Virus record (IMG/VR): IMGVR_UViG_2531839532_000007 | DNA: 8,294 nt | Strand: one strand, 5' to 3' | Origin: a virus | Lineage: Duplodnaviria; Heunggongvirae; Uroviricota; Caudoviricetes | Shown: piece by piece, positions 1 to 8,294 of the stretch | How positions within the stretch are numbered: position 1 is the stretch's first letter | Layout of the letters: every line of letters starts with the position of its first letter | Made by a program: the position numbers and the translations under genes | Notes under the pieces: generated by a model | Database searches by the model: none | Seen by the model: the letters and a program-made list of their open reading frames with translations, nothing else | What the model was told of the DNA's origin: nothing

Positions 1-306
1 GGCTAATGAAACACGGCAGTTTGCCCGGATGTTGGGGCTTGAACCGAAGAACACGGCGGTGCGGAGTCCGGAGAGTAACGGCATAGCAGAGAGCTTCGTG
101 AAAACGATAAAGCGTGACTACATCAGTATCATGCCTAAACCAGACGGGTTAACGGCAGCAAAGAACCTTGCAGAGGCGTTCGAGCATTATAACGAATGGC
201 ATCCGCATAGTGCACTGGGTTATCGCTCGCCACGGGAATATCTGCGGCAGCAGGCCAGTAATGGGTTAAGTGATAACAGGTGTCTGGAAATATAGGGGCA
301 AATCCA
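1..306 (+). mobile_element. Right-hand end of an IS2 insertion sequence (3' part of orfB plus terminal inverted repeat); element continues left of the window
   Basis: The 1..295 translation matches the IS2 InsD C-terminus as I recall it, and the sequence ...tggaaatataggggcaaatcca ending at 306 matches the IS2 terminus from memory. The downstream gene loses its N-terminus exactly at this boundary. Confidence 0.85.
2..295 (+). CDS. insD: IS2 transposase OrfB (InsD), C-terminal fragment; 5' end lies outside the window
   Basis: ORF 29..295 is in frame with the window start; the translation ...[55 protein letters not shown]... is the integrase-core C-terminus of IS3-family OrfB as recalled for IS2. 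Confidence 0.88.
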
Positions 307-608
307 ACTATTTAGCCACAGAGAATGTTCATATTGTATTAAAAAATGATAATACAGTGTTATTAAAGGGCCTAAAAAACATTGTGTCTGTCAAATTTTC
401 AAAGGATAGGCATCTTATAGAAACGACCTCTAATAAGCTGAAATCCAGAGAGATCACATTTCAGGAATACAGAAGAAACCTTGCTAAAGCAGGAGTTTTT
501 CGGTGGGTTACAAATATCCACGAACAAAAAAGATATTACTATACCTTTGATAATTCATTACTATTTACTGAAAGCATCCAGAAAACTACACAGATCTTAC
601 CACGCTAA
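307..608 (+). pseudogene. ydfO: DUF1398-family prophage gene (YdfO/YbcV-like), 5'-truncated by the IS2 insertion
   Basis: The open frame runs through the IS2 boundary; the 100 residues after position 306 (…[59 protein letters not shown]…) contain no Met. The only in-frame start is a GTG at 270 inside IS2. Symbol is assigned from Qin synteny (next to gnsB), from memory. Confidence 0.55.
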
Positions 609-1606: not shown

Positions 1607-1819
1607 TCAAAGCGCCACTACATGAACAGCGGCAGGACCTTTAGGTCCGTTCTCAATACCAAATTCAACTTCCTGATTCTCAGTTAATGTTTTGAAATCG
1701 TTGCTCTGAATTGCTGAGAAATGGACAAACACATCTTTGCTGCCATCTTTCGGCGTGATGAAACCAAAACCTTTTTCAGGGTTAAACCATTTCACTAAAC
1801 CAGTCATTTTGTTAGACAT
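1607..1819 (-). CDS. cspI: Cold-shock protein CspI (CspA family, 70 aa)
   Basis: [70 protein letters not shown] carries the RNP1/RNP2 motifs (KGFGFI, VFVHF). The leader ends in AAAGGTAATAATT-ATG, like the cspA leader. Confidence 0.95.
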
Positions 1820-3737: not shown

Positions 3738-3956
3738 ATCCTCACCCCGATGTACACGGATGGTGCAATATGTTTGAAAAGATCGGAGTCTACGGGGTAG
3801 TTTTGACAGCACACGTTGTTCTCAACGGCGCTAAAAAAACATACACATTAAAAATGTGGGTAATTATTTTGAAAGAAAGTCATATATAAAATAATAATAC
3901 GAGAAATGTTTTCATATTTAGTGTACTGTATACGGCCATTTATACAGGAAAAGCCT

Positions 3957-4127
3957 ATGTCAGAACGTAAAAACTCAAAATCACGCCGTAATTATCTCGT
4001 TAAATGTTCCTGCCCAAACTGCACCCAAGAGTCAGAACACAGTTTTTCAAGAGTACAAAAAGGTGCCCTTTTGATCTGCCCTCATTGCAACAAAGTATTC
4101 CAGACAAATCTTAAAGCTGTAGCCTGA
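3957..4127 (+). CDS. Small zinc-ribbon protein (56 aa, CxxC…CxxC), antisense to the late operon
   Basis: MSERKNSKSRRNYLVKCSCPNCTQESEHSFSRVQKGALLICPHCNKVFQTNLKAVA with an AGGAAA Shine-Dalgarno 6 nt before ATG 3957. The ORF-track start at 3906 has a poorer Shine-Dalgarno. It may correspond to a small Qin protein annotated in recent K-12 releases, but I cannot name it with confidence. Confidence 0.5.
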   Translation: MSERKNSKSRRNYLVKCSCPNCTQESEHSFSRVQKGALLICPHCNKVFQTNLKAVA

Positions 4128-4180
4128 TTGATTTTATTAGTAACAAGTATTTTTTATATTTTAATAATATATTTAAAGCA

Positions 4181-4208
4181 GATAATAAAAAACCCGCCTG
4201 AGCGGGTT
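4181..4208 (-). terminator. Intrinsic terminator (strong on minus strand, weak on plus) between cspB and the zinc-ribbon ORF
   Basis: Perfect 7-bp stem AACCCGC-CTGA-GCGGGTT; the minus-strand reading is followed by UUUUAUUAUC. It lies about 280 nt downstream of the cspB stop. Confidence 0.55.
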
Positions 4209-4490
4209 TGAGATTGTGGTGCTTTTTGTGGGAGTCATCCACTTACGCACTTTGTTTTGCCATGCCAGCAGTTAGCTTCTGCTGTAAAACTATTCATGCA
4301 GCAAACCTGCACTTCACCACAATGGTTAGCATACTTTTCCTGATTAAGATTTTGCCAAATATGCTAGCCATTGTTTCATGTATTGGACCTCCTTACTTTT
4401 TATTAAAGAGATCCAATATTCACTACTCTGTCCGTATCTCTACTCAGGCATCAGCCTTCTTCGTTATCGTATACAGACGAGCGATGAATT

Positions 4491-4706
4491 TTAATCAGTA
4501 ATGATGACATTTGCTGCTGCAGGACCTTTAGCACCACTCTCTATAGAGAAGGTAACCTTTTGACCTTCAAATAAGGTTCGATAATTATCATTCTGAATCG
4601 CAGAAAAATGCACAAACACATCTTTACTACCATCAACAGGAGAAATAAAGCCGAAACCTTTATCAGCGTTAAACCATTTTACTAAACCAGTCATTTTATT
4701 TGACAT
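4491..4706 (-). CDS. cspB: Cold-shock protein CspB (CspA family, 71 aa)
   Basis: [71 protein letters not shown] with RNP motifs; AAGGAA Shine-Dalgarno upstream; divergent from cspF as in K-12. Confidence 0.95.
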
Positions 4707-4849
4707 TCTACATTCCTTAACTTGAGCCTTTCGGCATAAATGGTTTGCATAACAGAAACGACTTCGTACTTAATTGGAGAGACTCAAAGAAGGAATAAGT
4801 GAATAACACCTGAAATGAGAACTGCTTTAGTAAACTACTTCGTATATCG

Positions 4850-4902
4850 TCTGTTCTTCAAACCGACGCAATCATTAACGCATAGTTGAACATATGAAGC
4901 AA
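4850..4902 (-). promoter_or_regulatory. cspB promoter (-35 TTGCTT at 4902..4897, -10 GTTAAT at 4879..4874) with a cold-box-like element (TGAAGAACAGA, 4860..4850)
   Basis: 17-bp spacer and AT-rich UP-like region. The element just after the predicted start site matches the cspA cold box TGACGTACAGA at 9 of 11 positions. Predicted 5' UTR is about 160 nt. Confidence 0.45.
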
Positions 4903-5006
4903 TGTTTATTTTAGACATCCAGCCATCTTCAACCCCATCAAAAAACTATAGCTTTCTTCAGGAACGTGTGTATAGTGCGCCAAGTTATCAGTATTAAGGA
5001 ATTTTT

Positions 5007-5219
5007 TTGTCCCGTAAAATGACAGGAATTGTCAAAACCTTTGACGGCAAAAGCGGCAAGGGTCTTATCACCCCATCCGATGGTCGTATCGATGTCCAGC
5101 TTCATGTTTCAGCGCTCAATCTCCGCGATGCAGAAGAAATTACCACCGGATTACGCGTGGAATTTTGCCGGATAAATGGTCTGCGTGGCCCTTCAGCTGC
5201 CAATGTTTACCTTTCATGA
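5007..5219 (+). CDS. cspF: Cold-shock-protein paralogue CspF (70 aa)
   Basis: [70 protein letters not shown]. The 70-aa form starts at a TTG (5007) with AAGGA 8 nt upstream; the first ATG is at 5019. The RNP motifs are degenerate, as expected for CspF/CspH. Confidence 0.88.
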
Positions 5220-5565: not shown

Positions 5566-5609
5566 CCCATCGTTGAAAAAATTTTATCCATATTTTTTGA
5601 AAAATGCAA
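5566..5609 (-). promoter_or_regulatory. pR'-like late promoter with sigma70-dependent pause element (target of the Q antiterminator)
   Basis: Minus-strand reading TTGCAT-17 bp-TAAAAT-TTTTTC-AACGATGGG, beginning 32 nt after the Q stop. It parallels lambda pR' (TTGACT-17-TAAATT-TGACTC-AACGATGGG), including the -10-like AACGAT pause motif, as recalled. Confidence 0.6.
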
Positions 5610-5640
5610 ACATCATGTCGCCATCTTCAGCAAAAATCAT

Positions 5641-6393
5641 TTATCTCGTCACCTTCCTCAATTGCGCTTCCGCGTATGCTTCTTCCTGCCAGCACTTTGT
5701 TACCAGTTTACCAATGACGTCCGCATACCCCTTATACCACTGATAATCGGTCAGGTCTGGTACCAGCTTCTGGACATGACGTCGTGCCAGCGTGGTCGGT
5801 AAACGACTAAACCGGTTTCCATTACAACGCCCACAAATCTTATATACCGGTACGCCATGAAACCGGGTTCTTTTTTCATCCAGAACAATCCCTTTACCCT
5901 TACACCCTCTGCACGCTGTGCTGGCTTCGCCCTTACCATGGCAATGCTGACATAGTTCCTTCACCCATTCTTCCTTGATTACAGATTCCCCGCGTCTGTA
6001 GTGTTTCACCACTTCGCGCAATACATTATAAAATCCCGTACCTGAACAATGCTCACAGCGAGCCTTACTTGCCGCAGACCTGGAGTAATCAGCAAAGGCA
6101 AAACTCACGAGGTAAGGAATAATCTGTAACCGGATTTCTTCACTCAATTTGTTCAATGTCGGGTTATCCAGTGCCATCGCGTAATTTAGCAGGCCTTCAA
6201 TCGCAAACTGAGGGTCCTGAACACCAACTTTTGCCAGAAATAAGGCCAACCCAAGTGGTGCTTTCGACTGCACCATCCCCTGCGCTGCCATTACATCCGT
6301 AATTGTTAAACAACCGGTGCCTGTCGCTGGAGCGTCATCGCTCAATTTTGGAGATTTTGGGGAGTAATATTTTGGTAAGGCTTCAAGGTTCAT
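5641..6393 (-). CDS. quuQ: Late-gene antiterminator Q (250 aa from ATG 6393)
   Basis: Several CxxC/HCHGKG zinc-binding motifs (CEHCSGTG, CQHCHGKG, CRGCKGKG, CGRCNG) and a position directly upstream of a pR'-like promoter. GGAG lies 7 nt before ATG 6393; the ORF-track start at 6423 is a TTG. Length matches K-12 QuuQ as recalled. Confidence 0.88.
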   Translation of the reverse strand: MNLEALPKYYSPKSPKLSDDAPATGTGCLTITDVMAAQGMVQSKAPLGLALFLAKVGVQDPQFAIEGLLNYAMALDNPTLNKLSEEIRLQIIPYLVSFAFADYSRSAASKARCEHCSGTGFYNVLREVVKHYRRGESVIKEEWVKELCQHCHGKGEASTACRGCKGKGIVLDEKRTRFHGVPVYKICGRCNGNRFSRLPTTLARRHVQKLVPDLTDYQWYKGYADVIGKLVTKCWQEEAYAEAQLRKVTR

Positions 6394-6406
6394 GCTCGTT
6401 CTCCAC

Positions 6407-7456
6407 TTACGCCAGTACGCCAATTGCCAGCGCGCGATCGATAAAACGAAATATCAGCTCCAGTTGGGAGCCATACTTATCTTCAAATGCCACTGTATCC
6501 GTATGCAGCTCGTTGTGATGCTTTCTGCACAAAGGCAACACAAAGAGATCATGTGCTTTTGTTCCCATTCCGCCCTGCCCGTGACCAATCAGATGATGCG
6601 GATCGTCGGCTGGCATACCGCAGCAAGCACACGGCTGTGTCTTAACCCAACGTGTGTATTTCTCCTTAACCCAGCGGCGACGTTTAGGCAGCTTCATGAA
6701 AGATTCCGGAGACTCTGGATCAACGGTGATGCTTACCACCGTCTTTTCCTGTGGTGATTTTTGTTGCTGGTGGGCGTAAGGCAACGGTGCAAGATTTTTT
6801 GTGCGTTGTTTCAATATGCTGGTGGCGGTCTGCTCTCCCGGTACGATGTCGCTTTCGCGGTACACCGAGCAGATTTTTTCCGCTGGTAATCCCAGCGAAC
6901 GACGCGATACAGCCTCAGGTAGTGCATCCACCACCTGATTGCAGACCGCCCACCAGGATAATTCAGCCAAAGATAATTCCCGCTCCTGCGTACCGCTTAT
7001 TGCGTGACGGATGACGTCAATCACCCATGCTGTCAGATTTTGTTGAGCAAGCAGCTCCAGTGATTCCGATGTCTGGTCACGCAGTTGGTTGTCGCAGTGC
7101 CAGCACAACACCATTGCGCCGGTACCATAACGGTGAATGACTGTTTCAGTGTGATGGTAATCGCCATTAGGCCACTGGCAGGATGTAACATGACGTAATA
7201 GCCAGTCGGACAATGCGCCAACGCCGCCAGCAGCACGAATCACCCGTTCGTTACTAAAAAACGGCAGCAATGTTTTGTCTTCCGCCAGCGGCTGGCGAAC
7301 GGCAGGAACGACTCCGGATGGCAGATTACGCATGCTTTTTGGTTCCGGTTCCACCAGCACTCGAGGATTATGAAATATCTGTATGGATTCACGGCCCGGC
7401 TTAAGGACCACCAGCCCAAGCTCAGGCACCAGAACAGGTCTAAGTAATACCCGCAC
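6407..7456 (-). CDS. ydfU: DUF968-family protein with C-terminal HNH/His-Me-finger-like motif (YdfU-like), 349 aa from GTG 7456
   Basis: C-terminal motif …QPCACCGMPADDPHHLIGHGQGGMGTKAHDLFVLPLCRKHHNELH… Strong GGAGG Shine-Dalgarno 4-5 nt before GTG 7456; the ORF-track start at 7495 is also a GTG but lacks a Shine-Dalgarno. Stop lies 13 nt before the Q start. Confidence 0.8.
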   Translation of the reverse strand: MRVLLRPVLVPELGLVVLKPGRESIQIFHNPRVLVEPEPKSMRNLPSGVVPAVRQPLAEDKTLLPFFSNERVIRAAGGVGALSDWLLRHVTSCQWPNGDYHHTETVIHRYGTGAMVLCWHCDNQLRDQTSESLELLAQQNLTAWVIDVIRHAISGTQERELSLAELSWWAVCNQVVDALPEAVSRRSLGLPAEKICSVYRESDIVPGEQTATSILKQRTKNLAPLPYAHQQQKSPQEKTVVSITVDPESPESFMKLPKRRRWVKEKYTRWVKTQPCACCGMPADDPHHLIGHGQGGMGTKAHDLFVLPLCRKHHNELHTDTVAFEDKYGSQLELIFRFIDRALAIGVLA

Positions 7457-7457
7457 G

Positions 7458-7736
7458 TTACCTCCAGATCCGTTGCTGGAAAGTGCGGGACGCACGTGGT
7501 GGGCGTTCGGAATAAGGCAGCCTGACAGAGATTATCCAGTGCCGATAGTCGAGACTGAGAGCTTTCTTAACCTCGAACCCGCGCCTGCGGTAAGAATGAA
7601 TCAGCCATTCGGCCTGTTCTGCAGTGCATGGAGGGTGCTGGAACCATTCAGACTTGAATGCGTGAGAATACCGCCCGTGCGTGCAGGCAAGAACGGGCGA
7701 ATTATCAGAATTGTAATATTTTGCGTTGCGTGCCAT
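7458..7736 (-). CDS. Hypothetical 92-aa protein translationally coupled to the DUF968 gene
   Basis: ATG 7736 with GGAG 8 nt upstream; the TAA stop (7458..7460) sits inside the ydfU Shine-Dalgarno (GGAGGTAAcGTG). Product MARNAKYYNSDNSPVLACTHGRYSHAFKSEWFQHPPCTAEQ… is Cys/His-containing; no family recognised. Confidence 0.5.
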   Translation of the reverse strand: MARNAKYYNSDNSPVLACTHGRYSHAFKSEWFQHPPCTAEQAEWLIHSYRRRGFEVKKALSLDYRHWIISVRLPYSERPPRASRTFQQRIWR

Positions 7737-7802
7737 CGGTTTTCTCCGGTGGCACGGTGTTACTCAGCGGGAGTTCAGCCCCGCGCAAGATTGTAGATGA
7801 GT

Positions 7803-8054
7803 TTATTCTCCTGAAAAAGCAGAAAAGCCAGCTTTTATTCCGATCTCTTTCAATGCCTGTAATGAAGTGACAAACTCACCTTCGCGCAAGATAAATCCGT
7901 CCGTGACCCGAGCATCCACAAAATTAATTAACGCAGCCCCATTCTTTCGCAAACACATAATGCGGTAATGACTAACAAGATTTCCATTTTCAACGCACAC
8001 AGCATAGAGGCCATCTTCACAAAAAATTTTACGCAGTTCTTCGATGTTCATCAT
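7803..8054 (-). CDS. rem: Rem-like small prophage protein (83 aa), function unknown
   Basis: ATGATG start with AAGGA 6 nt upstream. Length and position (between the hok toxin and ydfU) match K-12 rem as recalled; I cannot verify the sequence itself. Confidence 0.6.
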   Translation of the reverse strand: MMNIEELRKIFCEDGLYAVCVENGNLVSHYRIMCLRKNGAALINFVDARVTDGFILREGEFVTSLQALKEIGIKAGFSAFSGE

Positions 8055-8170
8055 CAGAATCCTTCCGGATAATTAGCTCTCCCCTTTAAGGGACCATCCC
8101 TCTTATCCCTGCGCGCTACTTAAGTATTTTTGATTCTATTCCGGCACCGTCCAGAACTTCAAACGCGTTG

Positions 8171-8202
8171 AAAATAAAAACAAAAACCCGCCGAAGCGGG
8201 TT
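8171..8202 (-). terminator. Intrinsic terminator of the upstream (hok-containing) transcription unit
   Basis: Stem AACCCGC-CGAA-GCGGGTT; the minus-strand reading is followed by UUUUUGUUUUUAUUUU. It sits about 70 nt after the hok-like stop codon. Confidence 0.6.
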
Positions 8203-8270
8203 AAGTGCGGGTGCGTTGAGGATGCCTGCCACATCAGAGGTGGCGAGGGATTTCTCCCCCGCCGGGTCTC

Positions 8271-8294
8271 TTACTCCTCAGGTTCGTAAGCTGT
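8271..8294 (-). CDS. hokD: Hok-family type I toxin (HokD/RelF-like), C-terminal 7 codons plus stop; rest of gene outside the window
   Basis: Minus-strand translation of the window edge gives …TAYEPEE*, which matches the Hok/Gef/RelF C-terminus (…EVAVFTAYEPEE) as recalled. Very short fragment. Confidence 0.5.
   Translation of the reverse strand, partial: TAYEPEE

Follow-up and report, generated by a model that had tools for sequence, protein, structure and literature searches.

The product of the prophage gene ydfU carries a cluster of Cys and His residues near its C-terminus. The gene lies in a stretch of 8,294 nucleotides (hereafter the window) that belongs to a cryptic lambdoid E. coli prophage of the Qin type. 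The locus raises two questions: (i) is the cluster the core of an HNH (His-Me finger) nuclease; and (ii) does the protein stand in for the NinG/Rap-type nucleases that lambda encodes in its nin region, as the original prediction had suggested? Family membership, predicted fold, residue conservation and gene order were computed and set beside the published work on relatives of the protein.

The ydfU gene and its neighbourhood

Positions 6407-7456 of the minus strand are exactly the RefSeq coding sequence of ydfU (WP_001265198.1), which carries the label 'DUF968 domain-containing protein'. The reading frame is 100% identical in E. coli C600/K-12 and strain 300709. Over bases 5600-8294 the window agrees with E. 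coli C600 (K-12), and with many other strains, at 100% identity, and its left end matches strain 300709 (100% over the full length). The features of the locus and of the encoded protein are listed below.

5641..6393, minus strand: ydfT/quuQ, Q-type antiterminator (Pfam, RefSeq)
6407..7456, minus strand: ydfU, 349 residues, GTG start, TAA stop at 6407-6409 (list of open reading frames, RefSeq)
6410..6721, minus strand: predicted C-terminal HNH / His-Me finger domain (residues ~246-349)
6503..6631, minus strand: Cys/His cluster (residues 276-318; translation, conservation, alignment with Gp16)
6722..6793, minus strand: variable linker, predicted to be disordered (residues ~222-245; pLDDT, alignment)
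6842..7456, minus strand: N-terminal domain (residues 1-205), conserved family-wide, down to 26% identity
7082..7180, minus strand: putative zinc-binding beta-beta-alpha element of the N-terminal domain (residues 93-125, CQWPNGDYHH…LCWHCDN)
7458..7736, minus strand: 92-residue open reading frame (orf92; PHROG 1212), the constant upstream neighbour of ydfU
7461..7465, minus strand: Shine-Dalgarno sequence GGAGG, 4 nt upstream of the ydfU GTG (read from the sequence)
7803-8054, minus strand: rem (RefSeq annotation of the C600 region)

A 362-residue open reading frame starting with a GTG at 7495 was discarded as the gene, because the GGAGG sequence, the TAA stop of orf92 (1 nt before the GTG at 7456) and the starts of the homologues, which share the initial residue and begin 'MRxLLxP', all favour the start at 7456. 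A scan for promoters and terminators between 5400 and 8294 yielded nothing above the shuffled expectation. The Qin copy of ydfU is an intact gene, carried as silent cargo by a cryptic prophage.

The order on the minus strand (RefSeq, matching the C600 region) is rem, orf92, ydfU and ydfT/quuQ, past which come cspF, cspB and the lysis genes essQ, ydfR, rrrQ and rzpQ. The junction sequence places the stop codon of ydfU 13 nt from the ATG of ydfT/quuQ, whose product matches Pfam Antiterm with an E-value of 4e-54; ydfU thus stands directly upstream of Q, as had been predicted. The further claim, that this is the position of the NinG/Rap-type nucleases, did not hold: in lambda ninH and ninI stand between ninG and Q. 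By position the gene corresponds instead to ybcO, which in DLP12/phage 82 lies immediately upstream of rusA in the order ybcN(orf)-ninE-ybcO-rusA-ylcG-quuD.

Related loci were retrieved from IMG/VR with a 10-sequence alignment as query, which returned E. coli-type loci only: 80 with homologues 82-100% identical, 65 of them evaluable. orf92 was found directly upstream of ydfU in all 65 (65/65). The start of rusA lay at most 60 nt past the ydfU stop in 51 of the 65, a count that describes one lineage and not 51 independent events, because these E. coli prophages are close relatives of one another. The 14 loci without rusA are a Qin-like subgroup (88-100% identical). Neither ninG nor orf/ybcN nor a separate ybcO was present among the 65 evaluated loci. 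The comparison was extended to five more distant lambdoid phages, namely Ayreon, YeP2, EPP-1, ST64B and Klebsiella ST101-KPC2phi6.3. In all five the ydfU homologue lies 0-2 genes downstream of rusA and is followed directly by Q or by a gene at the Q position. The normal module of the related loci is orf92-ydfU-rusA-Q, and Qin is without rusA. This order assigns YdfU to the slot of YbcO, next to the resolvase RusA, rather than to the role of a Rap substitute.

Some copies are no longer whole. That of ST64B is split into two open reading frames, and many truncated or chimeric ydfU-type copies exist. Apparent fusions of the N-terminal domain to tail fibre, tail tip J, capsid or portal proteins were put down to chimerism in decayed prophages, by deletion or in assembly, and judged uninformative as architectures. 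ST64B also has a separate small HNH gene (sb56) at the end of its genome, in the packaging position.

The C-terminal domain

YdfU scored above the gathering threshold of Pfam DUF968 (PF06147) with 256.6 bits (cut-off 27.8, E=1.5e-76), the entire profile (1-171 of 171) being aligned to residues 160-346. Searching with HNH profiles, one of the checks suggested earlier, was successful in part. PHROG 96, labelled 'HNH endonuclease', matched with E=4e-171, whereas Pfam HNHc_6 (PF16784), the family of Gp16 and phiETA Orf20, reached 26.2 bits, just under its threshold of 26.6 (E=6.8e-6; profile positions 123-184 of 204), and RecA_dep_nuc (PF16786; Ref) 17.6 bits, under a cut-off of 26.9. Pfam YbcO/DUF1364 (PF07102) did not match YdfU in hmmscan at E-values up to 1, and NCBIfam has no family for the protein. 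When 1.84 billion cluster representatives were searched exhaustively, 2885 clusters came up at E ≤1e-3, among them full-length relatives down to 26% identity. Against the PDB, phmmer with YdfU gave only a spurious match to peptide N-glycanase (E=0.32), and the family profile found YbcO only (E=1); searching the PDB by sequence alone is too weak for this domain.

The structure was predicted with AlphaFold2 from a 39-sequence alignment of diverse family members (mean pLDDT 87.1, pTM 0.54). Two well-defined domains were obtained, and the pTM of 0.54 is explained by the disordered linker between them (pLDDT <50 at 227-240), which is gap-rich and unconserved in the family alignment. In the C-terminal domain a conserved lead-in (VDPE..PK..RW..W-VK) precedes a beta-beta-alpha core, whose strands span residues 285-288 and 306-309 and whose helix spans 311-319; two more helices follow at the C-terminal end. 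The core has the beta-beta-alpha-metal arrangement of His-Me fingers, with a largely conserved His closing strand 1, where the superfamily has its invariant catalytic His, and candidate metal ligands on the helix, where the superfamily has His/Asn, and the four putative Cys/His ligands that flank it are those of the zinc-finger HNH subclass. An HNH fold, whose absence from a structure prediction had been named beforehand as grounds for abandoning the assignment, is thus seen in the model. Ref was the best structural match. Foldseek found no significant match in the PDB (best E=0.64), with HNH proteins nevertheless at the top of the ranking.

The cluster itself (6503-6631, minus strand) translates to CACCGMPADDPHHLIGHGQGGMGTKAHDLFVLPLCRKHHNELH, residues 276-318 of 349, with the motif CACCG…DDPHH…KAHD…CRKHHNELH. 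Conservation was counted over 84 sequences covering the C-terminal domain, each representing a cluster at 50% identity. The most constant residue was D303 (83/84), followed by H288 and K300 (78/84 each) and H287 (77/84); K300, H302 and D303 sit in the loop between the core strands. On the helix, H314 was kept in 72 and H318 in 71 of the 84. Among the cysteines, C276 was retained in 74, C310 in 69 and C279 in 61 representatives, and position 313 was H or C in 62. We propose C276, C279, C310 and H313 as candidate structural zinc ligands, H288, at the end of strand 1, as the candidate general base and H314 and H318, on the helix, as candidate ligands of the catalytic metal. Because the same residues are kept across representatives down to ~30% identity, selection on the active site is indicated, and the cluster, judged by its conservation, is real and not a chance pattern.

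An alignment with a characterised protein points the same way. In BLASTP, residues 273-328 of YdfU matched Gp16 of Staphylococcus phage PhiNM1 with 41% identity over 59 residues (E=3e-10), and the two proteins share the spacing CxxC-x8-H … C-R-x-H-H-N-E-x-H. Each Gp16 residue that was mutated in the published study has a matching residue in YdfU. The correspondence is as follows.

Gp16 C145/C148: YdfU C276/C279
Gp16 H157: YdfU H288
Gp16 C181/H184: YdfU C310/H313
Gp16 H185: YdfU H314
Gp16 H189: YdfU H318

Gp16 matches HNHc_6 with E=5e-117 and also exceeds the DUF968 threshold (29.1 bits). The profile of the C-terminal domain was further related to the YbcO family by hhalign (91% probability, E=1e-6, 74 columns), and BLASTP of YdfU against YbcO gave E=5e-4. 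Family searches, residue conservation and the Gp16 alignment together bear out the earlier reading of the C-terminal motif as an HNH core, and we consider it highly probable that YdfU has an HNH fold with an intact active-site signature.

The N-terminal domain

In the Pfam copy that was searched no model matched residues 1-160, DUF968 beginning at 160; PHROG 11007 spans residues 1-134. The AlphaFold2 model of residues 1-225 had a pLDDT of 88.5 and a pTM of 0.75, and the domain was present in all full-length relatives, PdcB of phage P1 included. A motif of the form C-Q-x6-[HC] … L-C-W-H-[CH]-D-N is conserved. Counted in 78 representatives, C93 and C118 were kept in 75 each, position 101 was H or C in 74, position 121 was C or H in 75, and D122 was found in 67. 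We propose C93, H101, C118 and C121 as candidate ligands of a second four-ligand zinc site, lying in an element predicted to consist of a beta hairpin (105-110/113-118) followed by a helix (119-125).

The spacing of the first knuckle, C-x7-[CH], is that of YbcO (C13-x7-C21). A conserved general-base His was not found in the N-terminal domain (His at 102 in 31 and at 108 in 13 of the 78 representatives). In hhalign the N-terminal domain gave 0.5% against the C-terminal domain of YdfU and 0.1% against the YbcO family, and in BLASTP the E-values were 0.76 against its own C-terminal domain, 0.15 against NinG and 0.40 against Gp16; these non-significant alignments all fall in the same register. The idea of an internal duplication is drawn from the predicted fold and the ligand pattern only, and the sequence statistics do not support homology. 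An Orf/NinB-like domain in YdfU was also considered and discarded (hhalign at most 0.2%).

The chances are evenly balanced that the N-terminal domain is another His-Me-like zinc domain, one that is catalytically dead. For group 7, the His-Me group of YdfU, no mention of a tandem arrangement was found in the classification of Jablonska et al. (PMC5714182). We are rather doubtful of the wider form of the tandem reading, in which YdfU-type proteins with two His-Me fingers would form, with orf92 and RusA, an unrecognised three-gene lambdoid module replacing Orf-Rap of lambda. Equally tentative is the suggestion that the dead N-terminal copy, flexibly tethered to the live HNH domain, could make an intramolecular pseudo-dimer that enforces nicking of a single strand. 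That such a pseudo-dimer would nick on a particular DNA structure, the three-gene module serving recombination or replication restart, is likewise conjecture that we think will more probably fail, and we would say the same of the corollary that the PdcB branch, with zinc sites only, is a non-catalytic derivative.

Proposed function and comparison with known systems

The explanation that fits best as a whole, and which we hold to be somewhat more probable than the rest combined, is that YdfU is a two-domain HNH nickase of the early lambdoid operon, acting alongside RusA. In this view ydfU would be a gene of the early, nin-type operon of lambdoid phages and its product would have two domains, the C-terminal one (~246-349) being a zinc-stabilised HNH / His-Me endonuclease of the DUF968/HNHc_6/YbcO/Ref clade. 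C276, C279, C310 and H313 would hold the structural zinc, H288 would serve as general base at the end of strand 1, and H314 and H318 would hold a single catalytic divalent metal. In the early lytic phase YdfU would nick intermediates of recombination or replication, for instance D-loops and branched DNA, in company with RusA; the gene of this Holliday-junction resolvase comes directly after ydfU in most related prophages. The N-terminal domain (1-205) would probably serve in the recognition of DNA, substrate or a partner rather than in catalysis. What we infer here are the roles of the residues and of the N-terminal domain, the nicking, the substrate and the connection with RecA and RusA. A nicking mechanism is suggested because the nearest characterised relatives, Gp16 and P1 Ref, are RecA-dependent nickases. 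That YdfU is actually a nuclease or nickase we regard as likely; we give at best even chances, perhaps slightly less, to its acting on intermediates of recombination or replication in connection with RecA or RusA. Experiments on YdfU or on any full-length YdfU-type protein were not found in the literature that mentions YdfU.

What is reported for Gp16 informs both this proposal and its strongest competitor. Gp16 binds and nicks double-stranded DNA in vitro, RecA enhances the cleavage, and the zinc-knuckle residues are essential for the in vivo effect; the protein supports phage DNA replication and suppresses that of the host (PMC12817073, 2026). The H157A mutation, at the equivalent of H288, did not relieve toxicity (PMC12817073), and the residue roles in the clade are therefore not settled. 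P1 Ref is reported as a RecA-dependent HNH nickase that acts on D-loops (PMC3973344, PMC4330346).

YdfU could instead mainly attack the host, by nicking or condensing the chromosome so that host replication stops, or by destroying competing elements. Overexpression of Gp16 arrests growth of S. aureus, condenses the nucleoid and suppresses host replication (PMC12817073), and P1 Ref is reported to raise the lethality of ciprofloxacin (PMC4713147). Moreover, a Rho-dependent terminator upstream of ydfU is very strong, among the strongest measured, and was discussed as silencing toxic prophage genes (PMC9160355). However, no report of YdfU toxicity was found, PADLOC gave no defence-system match, and the tight linkage to rusA points toward the processing of DNA intermediates. 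As Gp16 is reported to do both, an effect on the host would also be compatible with a role in phage recombination, and host attack as the main function seems unlikely to us.

Even less probable is a role of YdfU equivalent to that of lambda NinG/Rap, as a branch-specific endonuclease or Holliday-junction resolvase. The proteins belong to the same His-Me finger superfamily, and the genes of both lie ahead of Q in the nin-type region; a NinG homologue was absent from the 65 related and the 5 more distant loci, where another nuclease would have to fill the role. Yet hhalign of the C-terminal domain against lambda NinG gave a probability of 9% over 13 columns, covering the 'PCxxCG' knuckle only, the best BLASTP E-value of YdfU against NinG was 0.15, and Pfam NinG (PF05766; Rap) did not match YdfU. 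The two proteins are placed in different groups, 7 and 24, by Jablonska et al. (PMC5714182). In addition, RusA, beside ydfU in 51 of the 65 loci of the one lineage and in all five distant phages, would already take the resolvase role, and Ref and Gp16, the closest relatives in structure and sequence, are reported as RecA-dependent nickases, not as junction resolvases.

We consider it very improbable that the Qin copy, or the YdfU type as a whole, binds DNA without catalysis or is a remnant in decay, with a cluster that is a zinc finger only. Qin is cryptic and ydfU transcriptionally silenced, the PdcB branch keeps the fold and the zinc site of the N-terminal domain without the HH pair, and the split ST64B gene and the truncated or chimeric copies fit with decay. 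Against this, the Qin YdfU is full length with every conserved catalytic and ligand residue in place, and the retention of these residues to ~30% identity indicates selection on an active site. A homing- or packaging-type HNH, such as a terminase partner like gp74 of HK97, can hardly be credited: phage HNH genes often serve such roles (PMC12817073), but ydfU lies in an early operon between replication/recombination genes and Q, away from terminase and cos, is translationally coupled in the conserved orf92-ydfU-rusA-Q order and not a free-standing insertion, and in ST64B the packaging position is occupied by sb56.

The HNH assignment as such is already known from the literature and databases, so that the finding is correct and largely ordinary and the practical gain modest. 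Curtis et al. (2014) noted that DUF968 proteins carry a zinc-finger HNH motif and described an Orf/NinB-like domain for those of Gram-positive origin (PMC4118853). Jablonska et al. (2017) placed DUF968 and DUF1364 in His-Me group 7, naming Qin YdfU (NP_416078) and YbcO, noted RusA and Q as neighbours and hypothesised a role in recombination or repair, like that of NinG and RecA-dependent nucleases (PMC5714182). Several GenBank phage records label ydfU homologues 'HNH endonuclease'. The statement in the original prediction that the function is unassigned is correct for the RefSeq label and for the y-ome paper of 2024, in which ydfU is still listed as uncharacterised, but overlooks the published HNH call and that of the PHROGs. 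ydfU is a gene of the E. coli K-12 'y-ome', and its relatives occur in E. coli genomes by the thousand as well as in many temperate phages. The map of its residues onto the Gp16 nickase, taken with its place in the ybcO-rusA slot, makes a hypothesis open to direct testing out of what was a DUF label. What is added here is this map, the shift from a NinG/Rap-like to a YbcO/Ref/Gp16-like, RusA-partnered protein, the constant 92-residue upstream partner and a candidate degenerate second His-Me finger; only the putative zinc site of the N-terminal domain and the constant orf92 partner could yield novelty.

Among the known systems, P1 PdcB is a full-length two-domain homologue (26% identity over 91% of YdfU), encoded between phd-doc-pdcA and the late-gene activator lpa, just upstream of lpa. 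It has neither the HH pair nor the glycine-rich loop found in the active site of YdfU, and it has kept the zinc site of the N-terminal domain; it is therefore probably no nuclease, and not every member of the family can be one. The pdcB gene is non-essential in P1. Gp16 and YdfU are both products of early phage genes, with rusA in the same early region of each type, but Gp16 (223 residues) has a NinB/Orf-like N-terminal domain and YdfU (349 residues) an unrelated, putatively zinc-binding one; what holds for Gp16 in substrate targeting and RecA dependence may therefore not hold for YdfU. In Ref (P1; PDB 3plw) the N-terminus is reported to be disordered and basic (PMC4330346), whereas YdfU has a folded N-terminal domain in the model. 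YbcO (phage 82/DLP12; PDB 3g27) is a single domain of 96 residues, unlike the two-domain YdfU, with C-x7-C in place of CxxC in its first zinc knuckle and Asp as the last metal ligand. With lambda NinG/Rap, YdfU shares the His-Me finger superfamily, a gene in the nin region and a proposed recombination role, but no significant sequence relation, and phages of the Rap type are without rusA whereas those of the YdfU type carry it. Overall, as judged from its sequence, YdfU is YbcO/Ref/Gp16-like and not NinG/Rap-like.

Genes flanking ydfU

The gene immediately 5' of ydfU and the short junction 3' of it were compared with the corresponding regions of 65 related E. coli-type prophage loci from IMG/VR.

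7458-7736, minus strand: 92-aa ORF, PHROG 1212, of unknown function
6394-6406: ydfU-ydfT junction, 13 nt between the genes
5641-6393, minus strand: ydfT/quuQ, Q-type antiterminator gene

The stop of the 92-aa ORF lies 1 nt before the ydfU start, and the ORF stands immediately 5' of the ydfU homologue in all of the related loci (65 of 65). Searches of Pfam, NCBIfam and PADLOC returned no match for the ORF, which could be a partner or regulator of the YdfU nuclease. For K-12, a very strong Rho-dependent terminator has been reported 5' of ydfU (PMC9160355).

On the other side of ydfU, rusA starts no more than 60 nt past the gene and ahead of Q in 51 of the 65 related loci (among L012-L091, the IMG/VR set), whereas in Qin only 13 nt separate ydfU from a Q gene of a different (QuuQ) type; this difference suggests that rusA was lost from Qin through a module swap or a deletion. 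YdfT/QuuQ itself matches Pfam Antiterm and also the DnaJ CXXCXGXG zinc-finger domain, the latter with 35.2 bits (above the cut-off of 32.7) and over residues 158-203 of the 260-aa ORF, which correspond approximately to residues 148-193 in the annotated protein of 250 aa.

Divergent and chimeric YdfU relatives

Two of the homologues belong to Salmonella phage ST64B and phage P1.

L009 (Salmonella phage ST64B locus), 6492-7479: sb47/sb48, ydfU homologue, two annotated ORFs
L004 (phage P1 locus), 3905-4948: pdcB, full-length YdfU homologue

The ST64B homologue, divided over sb47 and sb48, is a mosaic, sharing 43% identity with Qin YdfU over residues 1-270 and 91% over the final 79 residues, a split which implies that a recombination breakpoint lies at about residue 270, where the HNH core starts. 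P1 PdcB, encoded just upstream of the late activator gene lpa, is a full-length homologue with 26% identity to YdfU; the zinc motif of the N-domain is retained, but the HNH site lacks both the HH pair (H287/H288 in YdfU) and its glycine-rich loop. PdcB is probably a non-catalytic derivative.

In six cluster representatives of YdfU relatives (P0125, P0145, P0173, P0189, P0190 and P0256) the N-terminal part of YdfU is fused with tail fibre, tail-tip J, capsid or portal domains. These are most simply explained as deletion fusions or assembly chimeras from decayed prophages.

Cargo genes and the ydfO junction

29-608, plus strand: IS3-family transposase C-terminal fragment (29-295) and truncated ydfO (DUF1398)
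1607-1819, minus strand: cspI
4491-4706, minus strand: cspB
5007-5219, plus strand: cspF

The three cold-shock paralogues are cargo amid prophage lysis and late-regulation genes, and such csp cargo is already known for Qin. The junction at which the transposase fragment adjoins truncated ydfO was matched over its full length by strains 300709 and WS4437A-1 only; in K-12, by contrast, ydfO is intact at this site.
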